From: an uncultured Alphaproteobacteria bacterium
GTDB taxonomy: Bacteria > Pseudomonadota > Alphaproteobacteria > HIMB59 > GCA-002718135
Direction: 5' to 3'
Assembly: GCA_902627245.1 (NCBI GenBank)
Contig: CACOIH010000003.1
Span: forward strand, 140 to 64,139
Length of the DNA: 64,000 nt
The translations under genes and the position numbers were made by a program. This document shows positions 7,518 through 21,094 of the stretch, piece after piece. The notes beneath the pieces were generated by a model. It ran no database searches. It had not been told where the DNA came from and saw only the letters and a program-made list of their open reading frames with translations. Numbering within the stretch: position 1 is the stretch's first letter; every line of letters begins with the position of its first letter.

Positions 7518-7892
7518 TTATATTTTTTTAAATACACATATTTTATTTCCATCTGGATCTCTTATATATGCGTAGTAATCTTTGCCATGTCTTGGTCCTG
7601 GAACACCTTCACTCTTAGCTCCAAGCTTAATTCCAATTTTGTAAAAATCTTCTACTACTTTTCTTGATTTAGCAATAAAAGTAACCATTGTACCATTTCC
7701 TACGGTTGCTCTTTTTTTGTTATGTGGTTTAATCAAATAAAGTTCAATTTTGTTAGGTGATATATTTCTAGAATAACCAAAATATCGATTATGTGTCAAA
7801 GTTCTTTGTATTTTTAGAGGCTTTAGAACTTTATCATAGAAGCTTCCAGCTCTTTTAAGATTGTTTGTGCCAATAGTTATAAAAGAAAACAT
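7518..7892 (-). CDS. VOC (glyoxalase/bleomycin-resistance/dioxygenase) family protein
   Basis: 124 aa with an N-terminal ITIGTNNL...FYDKVL pattern and a C-terminal YYAYIRDPDGNKI pattern typical of VOC-fold proteins. Confidence 0.65.
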   Translation of the reverse strand: MFSFITIGTNNLKRAGSFYDKVLKPLKIQRTLTHNRYFGYSRNISPNKIELYLIKPHNKKRATVGNGTMVTFIAKSRKVVEDFYKIGIKLGAKSEGVPGPRHGKDYYAYIRDPDGNKICVFKKI

Positions 7893-7941
7893 AATATGAA
7901 TAATAACTTAATCATTTAGTTATTAAAGTCATATTTCTCGG

Positions 7942-8026
7942 TGGTAGCCTCGGCCGGACTTGAACCGGCACTCCCAAAAGGGCAAGGATTTTAAGTCCTT
8001 TGTGTCTACCATTCCACCACGAGGCC
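7942..8026 (-). tRNA. tRNA-Leu (anticodon UAA), type II with long variable arm, CCA encoded
   Basis: Folded by hand. Acceptor GGCCTCG/CGAGGCT (G1-U72). D arm GTG-GAATGGTAGA-CAC. Anticodon arm AAGGA-CTTAAAA-TCCTT. Variable arm CCC-TTTT-GGG. T arm GCCGG-TTCAAGT-CCGGC. Ends in ACCA. Confidence 0.9.
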
Positions 8027-8334
8027 AATTAGTTTTTCAGAAGGATTTCTATTATATTTCTTCACATTCTGAAAGTACTTTAACATAAGTTGCATTAAAT
8101 TGGATAGTTAAAATTGCAACAAAAATTAAGTGTTAAAGATTTTTTTCTATATACCTAGGGAATTTAAATAAATGAAGCGTTCTGTTGACTAAAGCAAAAC
8201 CCTTGCTACATGAAACATGGGCTAATAGAGGCTAATCATGTATAGAGATCAATAATGAAATTTTTTAGTGTGGTAGCTAAAACTTTTCTGAAATATGTTA
8301 GTTTTAATGTGATAAGTAGTAAAATAAAATATAA

Positions 8335-9063
8335 ATGAATAATACAACAAAAGAAAATCTTATATCTATTTTTTGTTACAACGTAGATAAATTTATATAT
8401 TTGTTATTAAAAAAAGTTCACTTATCAAATCATAAGAATACATCTGTAATATTAATCAATGATTTTTCTACAGATGATACACTTAATGAAATAAAAAAAT
8501 TTATTGAAAAATATAAAACTGAAAATATTGAAATAATTAACAATAAAAAAAATATGGGCTATGGATTCAATTATAAATTATCATTTAAGTATGCAATAAA
8601 GTATAATTTTAAAAAAATTATATTTCTTCATGGTGATGGACAATATCCTCCTGATCAAATTAAAAAAATGTCGCTATTATTAGATAAAAATACTCTTGTT
8701 TATGGATCTAGATTTTTAAATTTTTCTTCGGTTAGAGAAAACATGCCAACAATTAGGTATTTTGCTAATAGATGTTTAACTATCTTTATTAATTTTATTT
8801 TCAGAAAAAAACTTACTGAGTATTTTAGTGGTTTTAGAGGATATTTTATTTCAGATATTAATAAAATGAATTTTGACAATCTTAGTGATAAATGGATTTT
8901 TGAGCAACAATTACAATTTAGAATAATGAATAAGAATTTAAAAATAAAAGAATTTCCAATTCAAACAGTTTACGAAAATCAAGTTTCTAATATACCACCA
9001 GTACGATATTGTATTGATGTAATAATAAATGCAATAAATTTTGCTTTTATTAATAAAAACTAA
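8335..9063 (+). CDS. family 2 glycosyltransferase (polyprenyl-phosphate glycosyltransferase-like)
   Basis: The N-terminal ISIFCYN...ILINDFSTDDT (DxD-type) and FLHGDGQYPP blocks resemble Dpm1/ArnC/GtrB-type GT2 enzymes. Confidence 0.7.
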   Translation: MNNTTKENLISIFCYNVDKFIYLLLKKVHLSNHKNTSVILINDFSTDDTLNEIKKFIEKYKTENIEIINNKKNMGYGFNYKLSFKYAIKYNFKKIIFLHGDGQYPPDQIKKMSLLLDKNTLVYGSRFLNFSSVRENMPTIRYFANRCLTIFINFIFRKKLTEYFSGFRGYFISDINKMNFDNLSDKWIFEQQLQFRIMNKNLKIKEFPIQTVYENQVSNIPPVRYCIDVIINAINFAFINKN

Positions 9064-10094
9064 AAATTGTTCTCTGCATATTTTTTGAACAAAATTAATC
9101 CTTCTTTAAGTGATATTTTCGGTTTATATGAAAATTCATTTTTTATTCTTCGAATATTTGGACATCTTCTTAAAGGTTCACTTGAAGGATAATCTTTTGG
9201 GTAATTTATATTTTTAATTTTAAATTTTTTTTCATTAAAAGTGTTAGCAATTTTATTTGCTAAATTATTTACACTTATCTCTCCAGTATCGTTTCCTACA
9301 TTATAAACAAAATATTTTCCAAAAAAACAGATTTTTATAATGATAGGTATTGCATCAATGATATTACAATATGTCCTTGTTTGGTTGCCATCGCCATACA
9401 CATTCATAGTTTTATATTTTATATAATCATAAAAAAATTGTGGGATAACTCTTTTATCAATTTTTGACATTCCATTACCATAAAAATTAAATGGTCTTAT
9501 TATTTTTGTATCTAGTGAATAAAAATTTTTATAAATATAAGTGTAAGTCTCACCAGATCTTTTGCTTTCATCATAGCAAGATCTATCTGAAATACTAGAT
9601 ACTCTTCCTTCATAATCTTCTGAAGTAGGGATATTTTTTTTATCAGGGTTTCCATAAATTTCACTAGAACTAAAATATATAAATTTTGCTTTTTTAATTC
9701 TTGCAAAATCCAATAAAATTTTACAAAGATCTGAATTTAAAAAATATGTTTCTAATGGGTATTTCTTGTAATATTTATGAGAGGGAATTCCAGCTAGATG
9801 AATAATTAAATCTATTTTTTTATTGAGATTAAAATTTCTTACTTTAGTTAAATCAGTTTTAGTAAATATAAAATTTTTTGTATCAATTAATTTTTTATCA
9901 AGTTTAGGTGCTATAATATCATAACCATAAATATTAAAAAAACCTTTAAATTTTTTCGCTAATAAAGCAGCAACCAAATAACTTCCAATCATTCCTCCAC
10001 ATCCAGTTATTAAAATATTTTTTATTTTATTTTGTTTTAGAATTTTTTGATTTACAGATTCGATTATTTTATTATAGGTTAATTGATCTATCAT
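9060..10094 (-). CDS. NAD-dependent NDP-sugar epimerase/dehydratase (extended SDR)
   Basis: Rossmann motif ILITGCGGMIGSY, then SSSEIYG and YDESKR (YxxxK) catalytic motifs. Confidence 0.8.
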   Translation of the reverse strand: MIDQLTYNKIIESVNQKILKQNKIKNILITGCGGMIGSYLVAALLAKKFKGFFNIYGYDIIAPKLDKKLIDTKNFIFTKTDLTKVRNFNLNKKIDLIIHLAGIPSHKYYKKYPLETYFLNSDLCKILLDFARIKKAKFIYFSSSEIYGNPDKKNIPTSEDYEGRVSSISDRSCYDESKRSGETYTYIYKNFYSLDTKIIRPFNFYGNGMSKIDKRVIPQFFYDYIKYKTMNVYGDGNQTRTYCNIIDAIPIIIKICFFGKYFVYNVGNDTGEISVNNLANKIANTFNEKKFKIKNINYPKDYPSSEPLRRCPNIRRIKNEFSYKPKISLKEGLILFKKYAENNF

Positions 10095-11341
10095 TTATAA
10101 ATTTTGAATTTGGGTAATGGTGAAATAAAGACTGTTTTTTTAAGACCATTTTTTCGCCATTTTGTTGAAATATCATTAAACAAATGCCAAGCCAGAATTA
10201 TCATAATATCTGGCTTGTTTTTAAATAGAAAATTACTATTTATGATTTCTAAATCTGTTCCAGGTGCAAGATGTCCTAATTTTAAAGAAGTAGGTTGTTC
10301 GACAATAAATTGCAAATGATCTTTTAAAAATGAAAAATAATGAATGATTACTGAGGCTCTAGCTGGAAAAGCTTTACCAATAATGTATTTAGATTTATTT
10401 TTATTTAGATATTCATAAAGATTATTTTTAATTATATTTATTCTAGAATTAAATTTAAAATATGTGCTGGGATTATCTAATCCAAAATTTTTTTCCATAT
10501 TTAAGATTTTATTAACATTTGGCAAAGGCTTTATTTTTTGTAGTGTAAAATGTACTTGGATATTTCCGCCATATCTATCTGAAGTTTTTGCATTATAGAC
10601 ATAAAATCCATAGAGTTTCATTAATTTTATTAAACTTCTTAAAGAGTAAGTTCTTAAATGTTCATGATAAAAAGTATCAAATTGATTTTTTTTAATTACG
10701 TCTAAAAGATAATGATTCTCTATTATAAAAAATCCATTTTTTTTAATTATTTTTTTAATCCCTTTAATGAATTCACCAAGTTTATTAGTATGTGCAAAAA
10801 CATTTGTAGTAGTAATAATTTTCGCCTTATTATATTTAAAATAAATTTTTTCTGCTGTTTTTGTATTAAAAAAATCATTTAATACTTTAATATTTTTTTC
10901 TTTATGAAAAATATAAGTACCTGTAGGTTCTATTCCCAATAAATTATTGTAACCAAAAAATTTAAATTGTGATAATAATGTTCCATCATTTGATCCAATA
11001 TCTATTATTAAATCTGAAGGTTTTAAATCATAATTTTGTATTGTTTCTTTAGCTAGTATTTTAAGATTATTCACAATAGATTTCGATATTCCAGGCCTAT
11101 AATGATAATTTTTATTATAAAGAATATTGTCACCTACTATGTAGTTATTTTGAACGTACATGCATTTTTTGCAAAGATTAATCTTAATTGGATAATATAT
11201 ACATTCTCTATTTATATTTGTTTTTTTTATTAGATCGTCAGCTAATGGTTGATAGCCTAAATCAATTACCTCTGTAAGATTTTTTGAATAACAAATCTGA
11301 CAATGATTTAAATAACCAATATTATAATTGTGATCAATCAT
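10091..11341 (-). CDS. NDP-hexose C-methyltransferase-like SAM methyltransferase with N-terminal zinc ribbon
   Basis: The CQIC...CKKC zinc-ribbon, the SAM-binding DIGSNDG motif and the C-terminal domain layout resemble TylCIII-type sugar C-methyltransferases. Confidence 0.65.
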   Translation of the reverse strand: MIDHNYNIGYLNHCQICYSKNLTEVIDLGYQPLADDLIKKTNINRECIYYPIKINLCKKCMYVQNNYIVGDNILYNKNYHYRPGISKSIVNNLKILAKETIQNYDLKPSDLIIDIGSNDGTLLSQFKFFGYNNLLGIEPTGTYIFHKEKNIKVLNDFFNTKTAEKIYFKYNKAKIITTTNVFAHTNKLGEFIKGIKKIIKKNGFFIIENHYLLDVIKKNQFDTFYHEHLRTYSLRSLIKLMKLYGFYVYNAKTSDRYGGNIQVHFTLQKIKPLPNVNKILNMEKNFGLDNPSTYFKFNSRINIIKNNLYEYLNKNKSKYIIGKAFPARASVIIHYFSFLKDHLQFIVEQPTSLKLGHLAPGTDLEIINSNFLFKNKPDIMIILAWHLFNDISTKWRKNGLKKTVFISPLPKFKIYK

Positions 11342-12314
11342 GCATTAATGATATTTTTTTTGTTAACTCATGTGATTTAATAATTGTAGATATATTGTAA
11401 AGATATTTATTTTCTGAGCAATTATTATTTTTTAAAAGTTCTTTTATGTTTTTATAAGTTAAATTATATCTTTCGTTTAAGTTATCATTTTTTTTATTAA
11501 TTATCATTCTTTTATTTTTTAATAATTTAAAATTTTTTGTCCAATTCTTTGAATTATTCAGAAGTTCAATTATATTTTTTTTTGATTCCGTCTTAATATG
11601 ATGAATATTACTTTTAGAATTGTTTGAAATTTTTATTTGGCAAGGAATCTTATTATCACACAATACCTTAATATTTATATTATCAACATAGTTATAATTA
11701 TTAATATATTTTTTAATTTCTAAAATTTTAATTTCTTTGAAGATAAAAAGAATATTATAAATCAAATGTATTAAATAATTATAATAAATACCGCCTCCTT
11801 GATTCTCTGTAATTTTCCACGATTTTTTAAAATCAATATAAAAAGTTTGTTTAAAAAACCATCTATATTTTATTGAGGTTATTGTCTCCCTTTTTAATAT
11901 TTTTATAAATTCTATCCATTGTGTGTTTTTTGGAAAAATAAAATTTACATTTATTAAAATATTTTTTTTTGTAAAATAGTTAATACTTTTTTTTAATAAT
12001 TTTAAATTAATAGAATACGGTTTTTCAAAAAAAAGATATTTTACTGTAATATTTTTTTTCATTATATAATTAATTACTTTTTCTTGAATTAAGGGAGGGA
12101 CAGCACAAGTTATCATATCGTATTTATTTTTTTTTAGAGCAAGTTTATAATTTTTAAATTTTCTTAGATTATTATCTGAAATATTTTTTTGATATATATT
12201 TGGACTTGCTATGTCTATTATTTTACATTTTATTTTTTTTAAAGCATAGAAGTGAGAATGATATCCAAAATTAGAACCAATAATTAAAGTCCTAACAATT
12301 TTATTTTCAATCAT
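11334..12314 (-). CDS. Gfo/Idh/MocA-like sugar oxidoreductase
   Basis: N-terminal RTLIIGSNFGYHSH dinucleotide-binding pattern and an FFEKP motif. Highly diverged and lysine/asparagine-rich. Confidence 0.45.
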   Translation of the reverse strand: MIENKIVRTLIIGSNFGYHSHFYALKKIKCKIIDIASPNIYQKNISDNNLRKFKNYKLALKKNKYDMITCAVPPLIQEKVINYIMKKNITVKYLFFEKPYSINLKLLKKSINYFTKKNILINVNFIFPKNTQWIEFIKILKRETITSIKYRWFFKQTFYIDFKKSWKITENQGGGIYYNYLIHLIYNILFIFKEIKILEIKKYINNYNYVDNINIKVLCDNKIPCQIKISNNSKSNIHHIKTESKKNIIELLNNSKNWTKNFKLLKNKRMIINKKNDNLNERYNLTYKNIKELLKNNNCSENKYLYNISTIIKSHELTKKISLMHD

Positions 12315-12444
12315 AACATTATTTATTAATTACAGAAATTATGAAAAGCAACTAAATTTATTTATAATTGAGTACAGAACTTTAGTTATAAAATTAATTA
12401 ATAACTTGTATAATTTTTATTGAATATATGTATTAATAAATATT

Positions 12445-13605
12445 ATGAAAGATATAGCTAAAAATTATTATTTCGTTTTGTCTATATTTTTATCTTTCCT
12501 CTTCATTATTTATATTTTTTTATTGAATTCTCTTGGTTTCATAATGGGCGGAGACTCATTTACATACCTTGAATGGGTGCAACTCATTAAAAATAATGAC
12601 TTTAGTTTCATAAACAACAATGATGAACACAGTCAAAAGGGATATAATTATCTTATTACAGTTTATATAATGTATTTTTTTCAGCTAATATATTTTCAAA
12701 ACTGGCAGATGTTTTTTGTTTATTTTAATCTCTGTATTTTTTTTCTTATTTTTTCACTACTTTTATTTTTATTAAATAAAGAATTAAAATTAATTCCAAT
12801 TATGAGTTTTAGTCTTTATATATTTTTTGGTAATTATGAACAATTTCTTTGGATAAGATATTTGCTCACAGATTACATTTTTTATTTATTAGTCAGTTTA
12901 CTTTTTTTTATGTGTTTTGTTTATCAGATAAAAAAAAATATAATTTATCTAATTTTTATTTTTCTTATTTTAGTGATAAGTTTTTTTACTAGACCAACTT
13001 TTGTAGTTCTGCTTTTAATAGTCACAACTTTGATTATTATAAATATATGCATAAAATTTAAATTATACAAATTTTTACCATTATTTTTAATTTTATTTTT
13101 TTGTTGTTTTGCAATATTTTTTGAACTAATTATTTTTCATAATTTTCTAGAAGGAAAATTCGCCGATTTGTCGTTCAAAAAAATATTTGGTTATTATCAA
13201 GAAGGTGTGATAGTCCGAAATAGATTTCATACATATATTGAAATAAATCATATAAATTTATTGAACTTACTAAAATTGTTTTTTTTAAAATTTATATATT
13301 TCTTTGTTTTTTGGGATCAATTGTATAGTTTAAAACATAATATCTTAAATACTATAATTTTCTTCCCAATTTATTTTTTTGCAGGATATTCTTTATTTAA
13401 ATTTAAAACTTTAACAAATTATCAAAAAAATCTTATTATAAATTGCTTGGTATTTATTTTTTGTTTTGCTTTTTTTCATTCCCTAACCCTTATTGATTAT
13501 GATTGGAGATTTAGACTGCCAATATATTTACCATTAAATATTGTTTCAATTATTGGTTTTTTCATTTTCTTTTATCAAAAAGACCATAAACTATATTTTA
13601 ACTAA
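12445..13605 (+). CDS. polytopic inner-membrane protein, GT-C-like glycosyltransferase or polymerase candidate
   Basis: 386 aa, about 10 or more hydrophobic segments, with an acidic GGDSFTYLEW loop after TM1 as in GT-C enzymes. The call is fold-level only. Confidence 0.4.
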   Translation: MKDIAKNYYFVLSIFLSFLFIIYIFLLNSLGFIMGGDSFTYLEWVQLIKNNDFSFINNNDEHSQKGYNYLITVYIMYFFQLIYFQNWQMFFVYFNLCIFFLIFSLLLFLLNKELKLIPIMSFSLYIFFGNYEQFLWIRYLLTDYIFYLLVSLLFFMCFVYQIKKNIIYLIFIFLILVISFFTRPTFVVLLLIVTTLIIINICIKFKLYKFLPLFLILFFCCFAIFFELIIFHNFLEGKFADLSFKKIFGYYQEGVIVRNRFHTYIEINHINLLNLLKLFFLKFIYFFVFWDQLYSLKHNILNTIIFFPIYFFAGYSLFKFKTLTNYQKNLIINCLVFIFCFAFFHSLTLIDYDWRFRLPIYLPLNIVSIIGFFIFFYQKDHKLYFN

Positions 13606-13666
13606 CAAACCGATCCACCAAAATGTAGATGATAATAGCTAAATGCTTGATGTAGTTACAAATTCA

Positions 13667-13710
13667 GCAAGGAATTTAAATCATTTGTGTCTACCATTTC
13701 AACACTAGCC
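13667..13710 (-). pseudogene. relic of the 5' half of tRNA-Leu(UAA) (acceptor 5' strand, D arm, anticodon arm)
   Basis: In a hand alignment to 7982-8026, 38 of 45 positions are identical with one 1-nt gap. This includes a 15-nt identical run, tttgtgtctaccatt. It has the same orientation as the intact tRNA. Confidence 0.6.
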
Positions 13711-13724
13711 GATTGATAATCTAT

Positions 13725-14471
13725 TCAAACTATTGAACTTTTTCCACCATTTAATTTGATCATATTTACAATGTCATCTACTACAGGTTGTATTGAAGTC
13801 ATATTCCATGAAGATACCACAATGTTGACGCCACCAGTTTTTGCTACCAAATTAAAGTAAGGATAACTTCCTATTGATGAATCTTTATATTTATCCTGAA
13901 TATCTTTTAAAAAATTAGCAATTTTACTCTCATAAAGATTAGTGTTAATAGTTGTTACAATCTTAGGTTTGCCTTTTTTCAATTTCTTAATTAACTCTAA
14001 AAACATAACTTGCATTATTTCTGGAACACCAGGTAGTACGTATACATTTTTTATTTTAAAACCAGGAGCTGCTGTCATAGGGTTCAAAATTAAGTCAGAG
14101 CCAATTGGCATTTTTGACATTCTTTGCCTACTTTCATTGAATTCTCCTTTGGGATAATAATTATTTAGTATTTTAAAAGCCTCATGGTTTATGACACATT
14201 CTAAATTAAATGCACTGGATATACTCTCAGAGGTAATATCATCGTGGGTAGGCCCTATTCCACCTGTTGTAAAAACATAAGAATATTTTTTACTGTAGTT
14301 TAGTACCCTGTCTATTATAGTTTGTTTATCATCTTTAATTATTACTACTTCTTCTAATTTTATCCCCTCTTGTAGTAAATTTTTGGCCATAAAATTAGAA
14401 TTTGTGTCTTGGGTTCTGCCAGATAATATTTCATCTCCAATAACAATAATTGCAGCTGTAAATGAACTCAT
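13725..14471 (-). CDS. CinA-like / MoCF-biosynthesis (molybdopterin-binding) domain protein
   Basis: N-terminal AAIIVIGDEILSGRTQDTNS and TTGGIGPTHDDIT motifs. Confidence 0.75.
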   Translation of the reverse strand: MSSFTAAIIVIGDEILSGRTQDTNSNFMAKNLLQEGIKLEEVVIIKDDKQTIIDRVLNYSKKYSYVFTTGGIGPTHDDITSESISSAFNLECVINHEAFKILNNYYPKGEFNESRQRMSKMPIGSDLILNPMTAAPGFKIKNVYVLPGVPEIMQVMFLELIKKLKKGKPKIVTTINTNLYESKIANFLKDIQDKYKDSSIGSYPYFNLVAKTGGVNIVVSSWNMTSIQPVVDDIVNMIKLNGGKSSIV

Positions 14472-19511: not shown

Positions 19512-21094
19512 TTGTTATTATTCAGATCGTTAAATAGTTTGAAAGTAATACTATCAAAAATAGCACTATATGATGCATCAATAATATTTGGAGAAACACC
19601 AATTGTTGTCCAATGTTTATTACTTTTATCCGAAGATTCTATTAAAACTCTTGTAATAGCTCCAGTTCCTTTTTCTGAAGAAAGAATCATCACTTTATAA
19701 TCTGTTAACTTTAAATCCTCTAAAGAAGGGAAATAATCAATCAGAGCTTTTCTAAGAGCGCTGTCTATAGCATTGACGGGGCCATTACCGACGCCAACTG
19801 TCATAATATCAATTTCTCTAACTTTTAGATAAATAGTTGCCTCTGCTTCCGTAACCAGAGATCCTTTAGCATTCCATCTTCTTTCATCGGTAACTCTAAA
19901 TTTTTCTAATTTATAAAAATCTTCAAAATGTCCTAATTGACGTCTTACTAGTAATTCAAAACTAGCCAGCGCAGTATCAAAAGAATATCCCTGTGCCTCT
20001 TTTTCTTTAATTGTTTCTAAAATATTATTTATTTGATCATTTTTTAACTCAACGTTTAGTTTATTTAATTGACTAAGAATATTTGATCTTCCAGCTTGAT
20101 TAGAAATTATTACATTTCTTGAGTTCCCTACAATGTTTGGTTCAATATGTTCGTATGTTGATGAGTTTTTTTCTACAGCAGATGCATGTAAACCGCCCTT
20201 ATGAGAAAATGCATGTTCACCTACATATGGTGCATTTTTTGTAGGTGGAATATTCAAAATGTTATCAAGTGTTCTTGAAATGTTTATTAAATTTTTAAGT
20301 TTATCTTTATTTATGTTTATCTCAAAATTTGTTTTTAAAACCAATGTTGGAATTAATGAAATCAAATTAGTATTACCACATCTTTCTCCTAAGCCATTTA
20401 TAGTACCTTGAACTTGTCTTGCACCGGCATTAATTGCGGCTAAAGCATTAGCTACAGCATTATCAGTATCATTGTGTGCGTGTATTCCTATATTTTTACC
20501 TGGTACAATTTTAACAACTTCACTAACTATATTGAAAATTTCATGAGGTAATGTTCCTCCATTTGTATCACAAAGCACTACCCATCTAGCTCCAGCATCA
20601 TATGCTTCCTTAATACAATTAATTGCAAAATCTTTATCTTCTTTGAAACCATCAAAAAAGTGTTCAGCATCAAAAATAGGTTCTTTATTTTTTGATTTTA
20701 TATGTTGAATACTATCACTTATCATTTCTATATTTTCTTGCTTGGATATTTCCAGTGCATTTTTTACGTGAAAGGATGAAGATTTACCAACTATACAGAC
20801 ACAAGTTGCACTTGAATTAATTAAAGAACTTAAACCTGGATCATTTTCTACACTCCTGCCAGGTCTTCTTGTCATACCAAAAGCAGTTAATTTACTATTA
20901 TTAAATACTAAATCTCTTGAAAAAAAATCATTGTCTGTAGGATTTGCTCCAGGCCAACCACCTTCTATATAATCAATACCTAAATCATTTAGATGTTGTG
21001 AAATGATCATTTTATCACTAACTGAAAAATTAACACCAGTAGTTTGCTGACCATCTCTTAGTGTGGTGTCAAATAGGTAAACTTTGTCTTCCAT
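19508..21094 (-). CDS. cimA: (R)-citramalate synthase
   Basis: 528 aa with the N-terminal FDTTLRDGQQTTGVNFS...IEGGWPGANPTDNDFF block characteristic of the CimA branch of the LeuA family, an HAHND metal site and a C-terminal LeuA-dimer-like domain. Confidence 0.8.
   Translation of the reverse strand: MEDKVYLFDTTLRDGQQTTGVNFSVSDKMIISQHLNDLGIDYIEGGWPGANPTDNDFFSRDLVFNNSKLTAFGMTRRPGRSVENDPGLSSLINSSATCVCIVGKSSSFHVKNALEISKQENIEMISDSIQHIKSKNKEPIFDAEHFFDGFKEDKDFAINCIKEAYDAGARWVVLCDTNGGTLPHEIFNIVSEVVKIVPGKNIGIHAHNDTDNAVANALAAINAGARQVQGTINGLGERCGNTNLISLIPTLVLKTNFEININKDKLKNLINISRTLDNILNIPPTKNAPYVGEHAFSHKGGLHASAVEKNSSTYEHIEPNIVGNSRNVIISNQAGRSNILSQLNKLNVELKNDQINNILETIKEKEAQGYSFDTALASFELLVRRQLGHFEDFYKLEKFRVTDERRWNAKGSLVTEAEATIYLKVREIDIMTVGVGNGPVNAIDSALRKALIDYFPSLEDLKLTDYKVMILSSEKGTGAITRVLIESSDKSNKHWTTIGVSPNIIDASYSAIFDSITFKLFNDLNNNN

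Follow-up and report, generated by a model that had tools for sequence, protein, structure and literature searches.

A glycan-gene island at tRNA-Leu(UAA) that probably entered by pelagiphage-type site-specific recombination

Surface-glycan genes vary enormously among SAR11 bacteria, and how these genes move has been debated largely on indirect evidence. To our knowledge, SAR11 genomes are famously devoid of recognizable mobile elements. The locus described here lies in a 64-kb window (the whole stretch of DNA that was analyzed) and raises the question of how five glycan genes came to be enclosed by an intact tRNA-Leu(UAA) gene and, 5.64 kb away, a decayed copy of the 5' part of that tRNA (Table 1). 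In our assessment the island probably entered tRNA-Leu(UAA) via site-specific recombination of the pelagiphage type and has since lost its integrase. The individual mechanisms are already known and no new principle is involved; the value of the locus is that it offers a clean case, together with a lead on mobilization in trans. It is small and legible, with an empty site, an att scar, a phage attP that matches and, at the identical nucleotide position, a prophage, and it ties the gain of glycan genes to this kind of recombination.

TABLE 1 Coordinates of the island, its boundaries and its host flanks in the window
Feature	Position	Strand	Basis
VOC/glyoxalase-family gene, host flank at tRNA 3' side	7518..7892	-	PF00903; adjoins tRNA in 46 empty-site genomes
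tRNA-Leu(UAA), intact, attR-equivalent	7942..8026	-	ARAGORN; identical to empty-site tRNA, e.g., L004
Proximal arm, noncoding	8027..8334	.	No ORF; abuts tRNA 5' end
GT2 glycosyltransferase, predicted polyprenyl-phosphate-sugar synthase type (ArnC/GtrB/AglJ-like)	8335..9063	+	PF00535 at 7e-19
Predicted NAD-dependent sugar-nucleotide dehydratase/epimerase (UDP-xylose synthase/ArnA-like)	9060..10094	-	PF01370, PF16363
Predicted sugar C-methyltransferase, N-terminal Zn-binding domain	10091..11341	-	PF08421, PF13489, PF08484
Predicted GFO/IDH/MocA oxidoreductase (sugar-nucleotide ketoreductase/dehydrogenase type)	11334..12314	-	PF01408, PF22725, both weak
Polytopic membrane protein, 386 aa, putative GT-C-fold (ArnT/GtrC-like) periplasmic glycosyltransferase	12445..13605	+	AF2 fold matches
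Distal arm	13606..13666	.	Membrane-protein stop codon to relic; homologous to L083 post-relic sequence
Decayed copy of tRNA-Leu positions 1-45 (relic), attL-equivalent	13667..13710	-	Match and shuffle statistics
cinA-like gene (MoCF_biosynth/NMN-deamidase-related), conserved host flank	13725..14471	-	PF00994

An earlier note on this DNA had described the intact tRNA, a direct repeat of its 5' part that includes an exact 15-mer, and between them a block more AT rich than its surroundings, holding only sugar-modification and membrane genes, with no integrase or mobility gene left; it read the whole as a site-specific insertion or replacement at a tRNA gene. Each part of that description held. 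ARAGORN found a single tRNA in the window, tRNA-Leu with anticodon taa, and Pfam searches of the open reading frames returned the expected gene content, with VOC and NADK on one side and cinA-like, map and purB on the other. GC content is 0.17 to 0.23 across positions 8000 to 13500 and 0.27 to 0.31 on both sides, a drop of about 8 points. The relic has the same orientation as the tRNA, covers tRNA positions 1 to 45, shares the 15-mer TTTGTGTCTACCATT with it and matches it at 36 of 42 positions without gaps (13667 to 13708) or at about 38 of 45 with one gap.

An AT-rich background raises chance similarity generally, and it is the only point in favor of reading the repeat as chance or local duplication within an ancestral gene block. 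The local score of the relic (+1/-1) is 30, with no other strong second match in the window, whereas the best scores in 200 dinucleotide-preserving shuffles of the whole window, searched on both strands, averaged 13.8 (standard deviation, 1.2) and never exceeded 21. The ends of the relic coincide with the 5' end of the tRNA and the end of its anticodon arm, as they do in phage attPs. The junction was then compared across 51 orthologous loci that were retrieved with cinA from related SAR11 species-representative genomes. It is empty in 46 of them, with the order purB-map-cinA-19 nt-tRNA-Leu-VOC-NADK, just as the earlier note had anticipated for an inserted island. The shuffles and the empty junctions already refute an ancestral gene block, to which we attach practically no credence.

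The relic occupies the exact point at which the ancestral tRNA began and is separated from the cinA stop codon by 14 nt; the stretch upstream of it is orthologous to the 19-nt spacer that divides cinA from the tRNA at the empty sites. Its gapless core carries six substitutions, five of them from G/C to A/T, and in total it has diverged from the tRNA at about 15 to 18% of positions. The anticodon stem is disrupted without compensation, and the relic is therefore a dead copy; an exact 25-mer taken from it had 0 matches in the metagenome contig collection. Its location suggests that the relic is the host's own displaced 5' half, still joined to the cinA flank, and that the tRNA now in use would combine a 3' part from the host with a 5' part from an incoming element.

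The junction is a recurrent hotspot, as had been proposed, and it holds different cargo in different genomes. Single-cell genome AG-914-F14 (L041) carries a complete T7-like pelagiphage prophage there, with genes for RNAP, gp2.5, amidase, primase/helicase, DNAP and exonuclease. This prophage begins directly after cinA and tRNA positions 1 to 38, and its site and polarity match those of the island. Three further genomes (L032, L043 and L038) retain the L041-type phage arm as a scar of about 200 bp, and in L038 the scar is accompanied by 1.7 kb of protease cargo, with a repeat of the tRNA 3' half as its boundary. The junction has thus been used repeatedly, with at least two att polarities, and should be a good marker for following, in SAR11 populations, integration events and the turnover of islands. 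As a separate observation, tRNA-Leu(UAA) of three SAR11 genomes contains a phage-related group I intron (Rfam score of 54.4 bits, above the gathering score of 50, obtained in E-value mode on a short stretch only). A gathering-mode Rfam scan of L032, L038, L041 and L043 returned nothing, and a 27-mer of the intron had 0 exact matches in IMG/VR.

The attachment sites of free phages match the island boundary closely. The attP of HTVC109P is identical to tRNA-Leu positions 2 to 41 over 40 nt, and in HTVC105P, a MedDCM fosmid phage and about 15 IMG/VR contigs the attP likewise consists of the tRNA 5' half adjoining an integrase gene. The 15-mer core, which the earlier note had suggested seeking in phage attPs, lies within those of HTVC109P, HTVC105P and the IMG/VR contigs, each time beside an integrase. 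The homology to the tRNA reaches position ~45 in the island, compared with positions 38 to 42 in the phage attPs seen. The earlier note had considered duplication of a 5' half atypical, and on this point it was mistaken: such an arrangement has been published for HTVC019P-type pelagiphages, whose attP contains the 5' portion of the tRNA and whose integration places the intact tRNA beside int and a 5'-half copy at the opposite end (Zhao et al., bioRxiv 10.1101/410191). These phages integrate into tRNA-Leu(TAA) and complement its 5' part (bioRxiv 10.1101/410191). The earlier note was right that SAR11 tRNA genes are targets of temperate pelagiphages, and this holds for tRNA-Leu(UAA) itself.

No recombinase remains at the locus. 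Pfam detected no Phage_integrase domain among the island open reading frames, and no integrase was detectable elsewhere in the 64-kb window; tblastn of the HTVC105P and HTVC109P integrases against the whole window found neither an integrase nor a remnant, tblastn and tblastx comparisons that also took in IMG/VR integrases gave no match in the window or the arms, and no excisionase, phage gene or recognizable remnant of one was found in the island or the window. A weak match in the integrase search at about 20.5 kb was rejected as belonging to a LeuA-like gene. When positions 7900 to 13800 were compared with HTVC105P, HTVC109P, the L041 prophage and the scars by blastn-short and tblastx, only the tRNA part was shared. 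Since no integrase, excisionase or phage gene is left, we infer the recombinase rather than observe it.

The following series of events would account for these observations. In the ancestor, tRNA-Leu(UAA) would have followed cinA after 19 nt and preceded the VOC gene by about 12 nt. A circular element, whose attP would have consisted of the proximal arm, tRNA positions 1 to ~45 and the distal arm, may have recombined with the tRNA gene by means of a tyrosine integrase of the HTVC019P/Pelagivirus kind. A functional tRNA would have been rebuilt from an element-derived 5' part, since the attP contains that part, and the host's 3' part. The host 5' half would have been pushed 5.64 kb away, staying with cinA and decaying under AT-biased mutation. 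The integrase and other mobility genes would then have been lost, leaving only cargo between the att sites; with the integrase gone, the island would now be fixed, barring homologous recombination or mobilization in trans.

A two-step history would separate the relic from the cargo: a T7-like pelagiphage integrated, leaving the relic, and was deleted or decayed, and the glycan genes were acquired in a separate, later event, such as homologous or illegitimate recombination into the scar. The full prophage and the phage scars of about 200 bp at the same site in other genomes are in keeping with such a history. So is the origin of the cargo, as its closest relatives lie in the flexible glycan regions resident in SAR11 rather than in viral contigs; the C-methyltransferase and the 386-aa membrane protein had no relatives in IMG/VR. 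However, phage arm sequence is absent from both ends of the island, yet it is kept in the L032, L043 and L038 scars. The proximal arm occupies the spot where a pelagiphage would have int. The two arms share nothing with 19 IMG/VR attP contigs beyond the tRNA part, and a scan of the proximal arm for promoters and terminators did no better than shuffles. Its motif TTTCAGAANGTGAAGAAATA had seven matches in IMG/VR, none followed by a tRNA; all fall within unrelated coding sequence and were set aside as chance.

A metagenome contig (L083) bears further on this question. It holds the same five genes, at 92 to 96% amino acid identity to those of the window, and both arms, of which the proximal one is 87 to 90% identical to its counterpart. 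Its island is again precisely bounded by a partial tRNA and the tRNA itself, but a different sequence from that of the window lies upstream of its relic. The recurrence of the same arms with precise tRNA bounds suggests that the cargo moves together with its arms as a single unit bounded by att sites, and with this second example the two-step history appears unlikely. The last ~55 nt of the proximal arm (CTTTCAGAA.GTGAAGAAATA.AATA...) is repeated upstream of the L083 relic, and the resulting order, arm-relic-island-tRNA, is consistent with a stacking of modules. The possibility that the contig represents an assembled circle with an attP junction was rejected, as its two copies of arm and tRNA have diverged and are not redundant.

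The same contig invites a different reading, in which the island is a nonautonomous cassette without an integrase but with a pelagiphage-type attP (the tRNA-Leu 5' half), which the integrases of HTVC019P-type phages insert, stack and possibly excise, much like a satellite or an integron-cassette-like parasite. The window and L083 both hold copies without an integrase whose conserved arms lie flush with the tRNA in different upstream contexts, and integrase-bearing phages whose attP core matches are abundant. If the reading were true, the most abundant bacterium of the ocean would have its surface-glycan (receptor) genes shuffled directly by lytic-temperate podoviruses. Against it, no circular form or sign of recent movement was seen, and the divergence of the relic, given above, indicates an old, static insertion. 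Moreover, no integrase arm-site motifs of the phage attPs were detectably shared with the island arms, and insertion of a second element into the relic, or tandem accretion, could likewise account for the L083 context. We regard such mobilization as a slim prospect, unlikely at best, and favor a single insertion by an element that brought its own integrase.

The cargo may form a self-contained Gtr/Arn-like surface-glycan module. By this reading, based on domain matches, its enzymes would make a modified, C-methylated sugar nucleotide, the GT2 protein would place the C-methylated sugar onto polyprenyl phosphate, and the GT-C-like protein would transfer this sugar, on the outer side of the inner membrane, to an acceptor at the surface. 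The NCBIfam matches of the GT2 protein (AglJ, dolichyl-P hexose transferase and PpgS) are weak and far below curated cutoffs, and an exact look-up of this protein returned only two Tara contigs of about 1.1 kb, which break off about 24 nt away from the tRNA. The top NCBIfam match of the dehydratase/epimerase, PRK11908, is also below its cutoff. Relatives of the C-methyltransferase at 96 to 97% identity are rare (L083 and P0012, the latter with four members), and an 81% relative is located in a resident SAR11 glycan region. The oxidoreductase, C-methyltransferase and epimerase occur together in 12 related loci.

The 386-aa membrane protein had no Pfam or NCBIfam match, and an exact-protein look-up returned no record. 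Only 11 homologs were found, all beside a GT2 gene and sugar-modifying genes and several also with a C-methyltransferase and an epimerase nearby; residue D37 is invariant. In L061 and L062 a gene for a GtrA-like flippase directly precedes the homolog, and in L091 a PMT_2 (GT-C) protein takes the equivalent place. The AF2 model (pLDDT of 82) had top PDB fold matches that are all GT-C proteins (Pmt4, ArnT, STT3 and ALG9), at E values of only 0.1 to 1; the match to ArnT had a probability of 1.00 and a TMq of 0.50 at a weak E value of about 0.1. The protein may be a GT-C-type transferase. No open reading frame between 8027 and 13666 encodes a GtrA/ArnEF-type flippase.

In Salmonella and Shigella, phage gtr (GtrA/GtrB/GtrC) O-antigen cassettes lie beside attP and int and persist in prophage remnants at tRNA genes. 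The island resembles these cassettes in lying at a phage-type attachment site with a plausible role in altering a phage receptor glycan, and both these and the ArnA/ArnC/ArnT lipid A pathway in pairing a putative GT2 polyprenyl-phosphate-sugar synthase with a putative polytopic GT-C-type transferase; its products probably alter the surface glycan seen by phages. Unlike Gtr and Arn, it is without the flippase, has three additional sugar-nucleotide tailoring enzymes and shows no sequence-level membership in the GtrC or ArnT families.

Of the known elements, HTVC019P-type pelagiphages (Pelagivirus, Autographiviridae; Zhao et al., bioRxiv 10.1101/410191; Environ Microbiol 2019) are close in sharing the tRNA-Leu(UAA) target, the polarity (5' part in attP, intact tRNA proximal to int, 5'-half copy at the far end) and, in AG-914-F14, the identical site. 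In contrast to such a prophage, the island contains no int, RNAP, replication, structural or other phage genes; it consists of five glycan genes at 17 to 23% GC with unrelated arms. Among the features of tRNA-targeted integrative genomic islands of the tyrosine-integrase type, it displays the empty site, the direct repeat and the deviant GC content but has no integrase beside the tRNA-proximal att. Prochlorococcus tycheposons and their degenerate modules carry cargo between full and partial tRNAs, are stacked by successive integrations and, when old, have lost the integrase (Hackl et al., bioRxiv 10.1101/2020.12.28.424599). The streamlined marine host, the island cargo and the full and partial tRNA flanks are similar here, with the window corresponding to one module and L083 resembling tycheposon-type stacking, whereas the host, tRNAs and recombinases are others, and the tyrosine recombinase and replication modules by which tycheposons are defined are both absent. 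A recent model ("Pelagibacter, resolved"; bioRxiv 10.64898/2026.04.03.716430) has phages at conserved tRNAs deposit surface-modification cargo, lose their structural genes and leave low-GC cargo behind. It concerns a large hypervariable region (HVR) bounded by tRNA-Phe/His and tRNA-Arg, is based on indirect evidence and has 0 occurrences of tRNA-Leu (bioRxiv 10.64898/2026.04.03.716430). Compared with that model, the island is a small, clean instance in which both att sites can still be read and where the att scar, empty junctions in other genomes and a prophage at the site are directly observed.

ARAGORN finds a single tRNA gene in the window, tRNA-Leu (anticodon taa), and a decayed copy of its 5' half lies more than 5 kb away, on the cinA side. 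Read on the plus strand, this relic matches the part of the gene that encodes the tRNA 5' half at 36 of 42 positions without a gap, including an exact 15-mer (TTTGTGTCTACCATT); with one gap, the alignment covers about 38 of 45 positions and reaches 13710. Its segment score under +1/−1 scoring is 30, whereas the best scores on either strand of 200 dinucleotide-preserving shuffles of the entire 64-kb window had a mean of 13.8 (standard deviation, 1.2) and a maximum of 21, and the unshuffled window scored only 13 on its other strand. The repeat proposed in the earlier note is thus above composition-matched chance. The gapless core has six substitutions, five of them from G/C to A/T, and they disrupt the anticodon stem with no compensating changes, which fits a non-functional copy decaying under the AT-biased mutation of SAR11 and indicates that the insertion event was not recent. 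The 5,640 bp between tRNA and relic hold five open reading frames. GC content is 0.17 to 0.23 over positions 8000 to 13500 and 0.27 to 0.31 in both flanks. Genes for NAD kinase and a VOC protein lie in the flank next to the tRNA, and cinA-like, map, and purB genes lie in the flank next to the relic. In all of these checkable details (tRNA, relic, GC, open reading frames, and flanks), the earlier description was correct.

Features of the tRNA-Leu locus, of related loci, and of the phage HTVC120P
Feature	Position	Strand	Remarks
tRNA-Leu (taa)	7942-8026	−	window
Proximal arm	8027-8334		window, noncoding, GT2-tRNA gap (308 nt)
GT2 glycosyltransferase	8335-9063	+	island ORF
NAD-dependent dehydratase/epimerase	9060-10094	−	island ORF
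Sugar C-methyltransferase	10091-11341	−	island ORF
GFO/IDH/MocA oxidoreductase	11334-12314	−	island ORF
386-aa polytopic membrane protein	12445-13605	+	no family match
Distal arm	13606-13666		window, membrane-protein gene to relic (~60 nt)
Relic, gapless match	13667-13708		window
First 10 kb of prophage insert	L041 10764-20744		SAG AG-914-F14, contig CACIXR010000005.1
Protease insert	L038 11281-13080		downstream of tRNA
tRNA-Leu intron	L032 ~11038-11229		SAG AG-325-B13
tRNA-Leu intron	L038 ~11038-11229		SAG AG-414-N23
tRNA-Leu intron	L043 ~11037-11228		SAG AG-899-B06
Phage group I intron	L170 1462-1652 (~19616-19806)		HTVC120P (MH598807)
Distant glycan cassette	L091 1000-8750		metagenome contig Ga0209383_1003529

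Orthologous loci were retrieved with the cinA-like protein, using one genome per species, and all 51 came from SAR11 genomes, either single-cell or assembled from metagenomes. In 47 of them, 19 to 20 nt separate the cinA stop codon from an intact tRNA-Leu(taa) of 85 nt, and in 46 of these the tRNA is followed directly by VOC, NAD kinase, and the gene after that; the contig of the remaining one stops at the tRNA. The uninterrupted junctions indicate an ancestral order of purB-map-cinA-tRNA-Leu-VOC-NADK with no insert. In the window, the relic starts 14 nt past the cinA stop codon, and the spacer before it (TAGTTTGAATAGATTATCAATC) is orthologous to the spacer before the tRNA (TAGTTTGATATTAGATCTTCATT) in L004, the closest relative of the window locus. 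Spacer and position together identify the relic as the original 5' half left in place, and the intact tRNA of the window is identical in sequence to those of the empty sites. The island and a complete tRNA now stand between this original 5' half and the VOC gene. The suggestion that the island was inserted at the tRNA is supported by the 46 empty junctions and by the location of the relic at the original tRNA start.

Duplication of the 5' half had been regarded as atypical, but it is normal for attP sites of the HTVC019P type. Podoviruses of this type have been shown experimentally to integrate into SAR11 tRNA genes; tRNA-Leu(TAA) is the target of HTVC105P, HTVC109P, HTVC119P, and HTVC200P, and their attP, which has int on one side and the RNA polymerase gene on the other, includes the tRNA's 5' portion (Zhao et al., bioRxiv 10.1101/410191). 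Such an attP leaves a reconstituted tRNA beside int and a 5' fragment at the opposite end of the prophage. A BLAST search of the relic region against a phage collection matched exactly those attP sites, between the RNA polymerase and integrase genes. Over 40 nt, the HTVC109P attP is identical to positions 2 to 41 of the window tRNA, and that of HTVC105P differs by one indel and one mismatch. A 27-mer of the tRNA 5' half is present in 19 IMG/VR contigs, about 15 of which have tRNA positions 1 to 38 (in one, to 42) followed by unrelated sequence and an adjoining tyrosine integrase with 30 to 79% identity to those of HTVC105P and HTVC109P. The attP matches and adjoining integrases mark the 5'-half geometry as usual for this phage group. 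Two very AT-rich IMG/VR contigs (L064 and L078; GC, 0.23) each contain a complete tRNA-Leu(UAA)-like gene with D and anticodon arms identical to those of SAR11 and different acceptor and T arms; these genes are predicted to be phage-encoded tRNAs, not attP sites.

Four of the 51 loci were not empty. In L041, cinA is followed by tRNA positions 1 to 38 and then by a phage arm, and T7-like genes (RNA polymerase [phrog_414, 2e-250], gp2.5-like SSB, amidase, primase/helicase, DNA polymerase, and exonuclease) span all of the first 10 kb of the insert examined. This insert is a prophage, apparently a complete T7-like pelagiphage, at a nucleotide position and polarity identical to those of the island. 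In L032 and L043, this 5' half is likewise followed by the phage arm seen in L041 (GACTAGCCGACTAAGTAACCC...), but a complete tRNA comes after only about 200 bp of it, and this remnant is a deletion scar of an L041-like prophage. The same scar is found in L038, which has in addition a 1.7-kb insert downstream of the tRNA. This insert codes for a trypsin-like protease (PF13365), contains an open reading frame of 119 aa, and has no integrase; an exact repeat of tRNA positions 32 to 85 (54 nt) marks its boundary. It has the classical 3'-half polarity, so the tRNA gene has served as a target for at least two kinds of element, from both sides. Backbone identity is 99.4% between L041 and the empty locus L042 and 98.8% between L043 and L041; empty, prophage, and scar states coexist in one tight population. 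The prophage, scars, and protease insert bear out the proposal that this tRNA is a recurrent hotspot.

A second copy of the island was found on the 6,077-bp metagenome contig MDSW01190973.1 (L083), where the five genes recur in unchanged order, with 92 to 96% amino acid identity to those of the window. The contig ends in tRNA positions 1 to 44 on one side and contains a partial tRNA (31/34) toward the other. Populations with the island are represented in Tara samples ERR594343 and ERR594339 as well as in the MDSW assembly. The proximal arm is 87 to 90% identical between the two copies, the distal arms are homologous, and both relics meet the distal arm near tRNA position 39 to 45 (T[C/T]CTTGCT...). 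Upstream of the relic, the window has the host cinA flank, whereas L083 has a second, diverged version of the final ~55 nt of the proximal arm (CTTTCAGAAAGTGAAGAAATAAAATA...). This arm copy probably reflects integrations, stacked or in succession, by elements whose arms are related, as in the islands of Prochlorococcus (Hackl et al., bioRxiv 10.1101/2020.12.28.424599), and it argues that arms and cargo are one att-bounded unit and against a drift of the genes into an old phage scar. The two relics have no derived substitutions in common, which is compatible with either one or two integration events.

As had been stated earlier, no mobility gene is left: a domain search found no integrase domain in any island open reading frame, and the HTVC105P and HTVC109P integrases had no tblastn match in the whole window. 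A weak integrase match near 20.5 kb was a LeuA-like gene. The island has no similarity to the phage arms or integrases outside the tRNA part, and the C-methyltransferase and 386-aa membrane protein have no relatives in IMG/VR, where matches to a proximal-arm motif were rejected as chance matches within coding sequence. Relatives of the cargo occur in SAR11-like genomes, which indicates that it was drawn from SAR11's own flexible glycan gene pool. An 81% homologue of the C-methyltransferase lies in a large glycan region adjoining lepA-pheTS-rplT-rpmI-infC, and 77% relatives in another locus (L085) lie between unrelated metabolic genes. L091 carries a distant oxidoreductase-C-methyltransferase-epimerase-GT2 cassette with a PMT_2 GT-C protein, adjoining tRNA-Thr, NAD kinase, and tRNA-Leu(taa). 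Movement of the oxidoreductase-methyltransferase-epimerase-GT2 block has placed it in at least five contexts, and glycan cassettes of this type repeatedly adjoin tRNA genes.

The best NCBIfam matches of the GT2 protein, all below threshold, are polyprenyl-phosphate-sugar synthases (AglJ, dolichyl-phosphate hexose transferase, and PpgS). The family of the 386-aa protein is rare (11 matches); every examined member adjoins GT2 and sugar-tailoring genes, and in one context a GtrA-like flippase directly precedes the homologue. An AlphaFold model built on its homologues (pLDDT, 82; pTM, 0.85) had as its best Foldseek matches in the PDB only GT-C proteins, namely, Pmt4, ArnT (probability, 1.00; TMq, 0.50), STT3/PglB, ALG9, and EmbC, with E values of only 0.1 to 1. 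Two homologues (L061 and L063) lie beside tRNA-Met. The island dehydratase is ArnA/UDP-xylose-synthase-like. The most economical reading is that the dehydratase, C-methyltransferase, and oxidoreductase would make a tailored sugar nucleotide, the sugar of which would be loaded on polyprenyl phosphate and then added to a surface glycan outside the inner membrane. ArnA/C/T and the gtr serotype-conversion cassettes of phages follow the same logic; the island itself encodes no flippase.

In mechanism, the island corresponds to the integration of pelagiphages (Zhao et al., bioRxiv 10.1101/410191), and in outcome it corresponds to degenerate tRNA-flanked modules, for instance the remnants of tycheposons. 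The outcome also agrees with the proposal that the hypervariable regions of Pelagibacter are the work of tRNA-integrating phages, which leave behind cargo for surface modification and shed the genes of their own (bioRxiv 10.64898/2026.04.03.716430). Defining genes of prophages and of tycheposons were tested for and are absent, and membership of either family was rejected. The island is an unusually legible case of a known class, the integrase-less cargo island at a tRNA att site. That it is an att-bearing cassette mobilized in trans by phage integrases seems to us improbable.

An element of ~190 nt splits the complete tRNA-Leu(UAA) between U34 and A35, the canonical position of the cyanobacterial and plastid intron, in the three scar-bearing loci (L032, L038, and L043). 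It matches Rfam Intron_gpI (RF00028) with 54.4 bits (E = 4e-13), which exceeds the gathering score. These split tRNAs were missed by ARAGORN. The intron is confined to these loci and occurs in none of the 47 with an intact tRNA; a literature search found no report of it. The pelagiphage HTVC120P has a group I intron of similar length (~190 nt; RF00028, 48.6 bits) that splits its capsid gene into gp29 and gp30, annotated as two coding sequences. The catalytic core of the tRNA-Leu intron is 76% identical to that of HTVC120P over 150 nt (E = 4e-19) and also matches the uncultured deep-sea phage KT997847. This similarity suggests that phage and host may have one intron lineage in common and that introns may pass between pelagiphages and the host tRNA gene into which they integrate.
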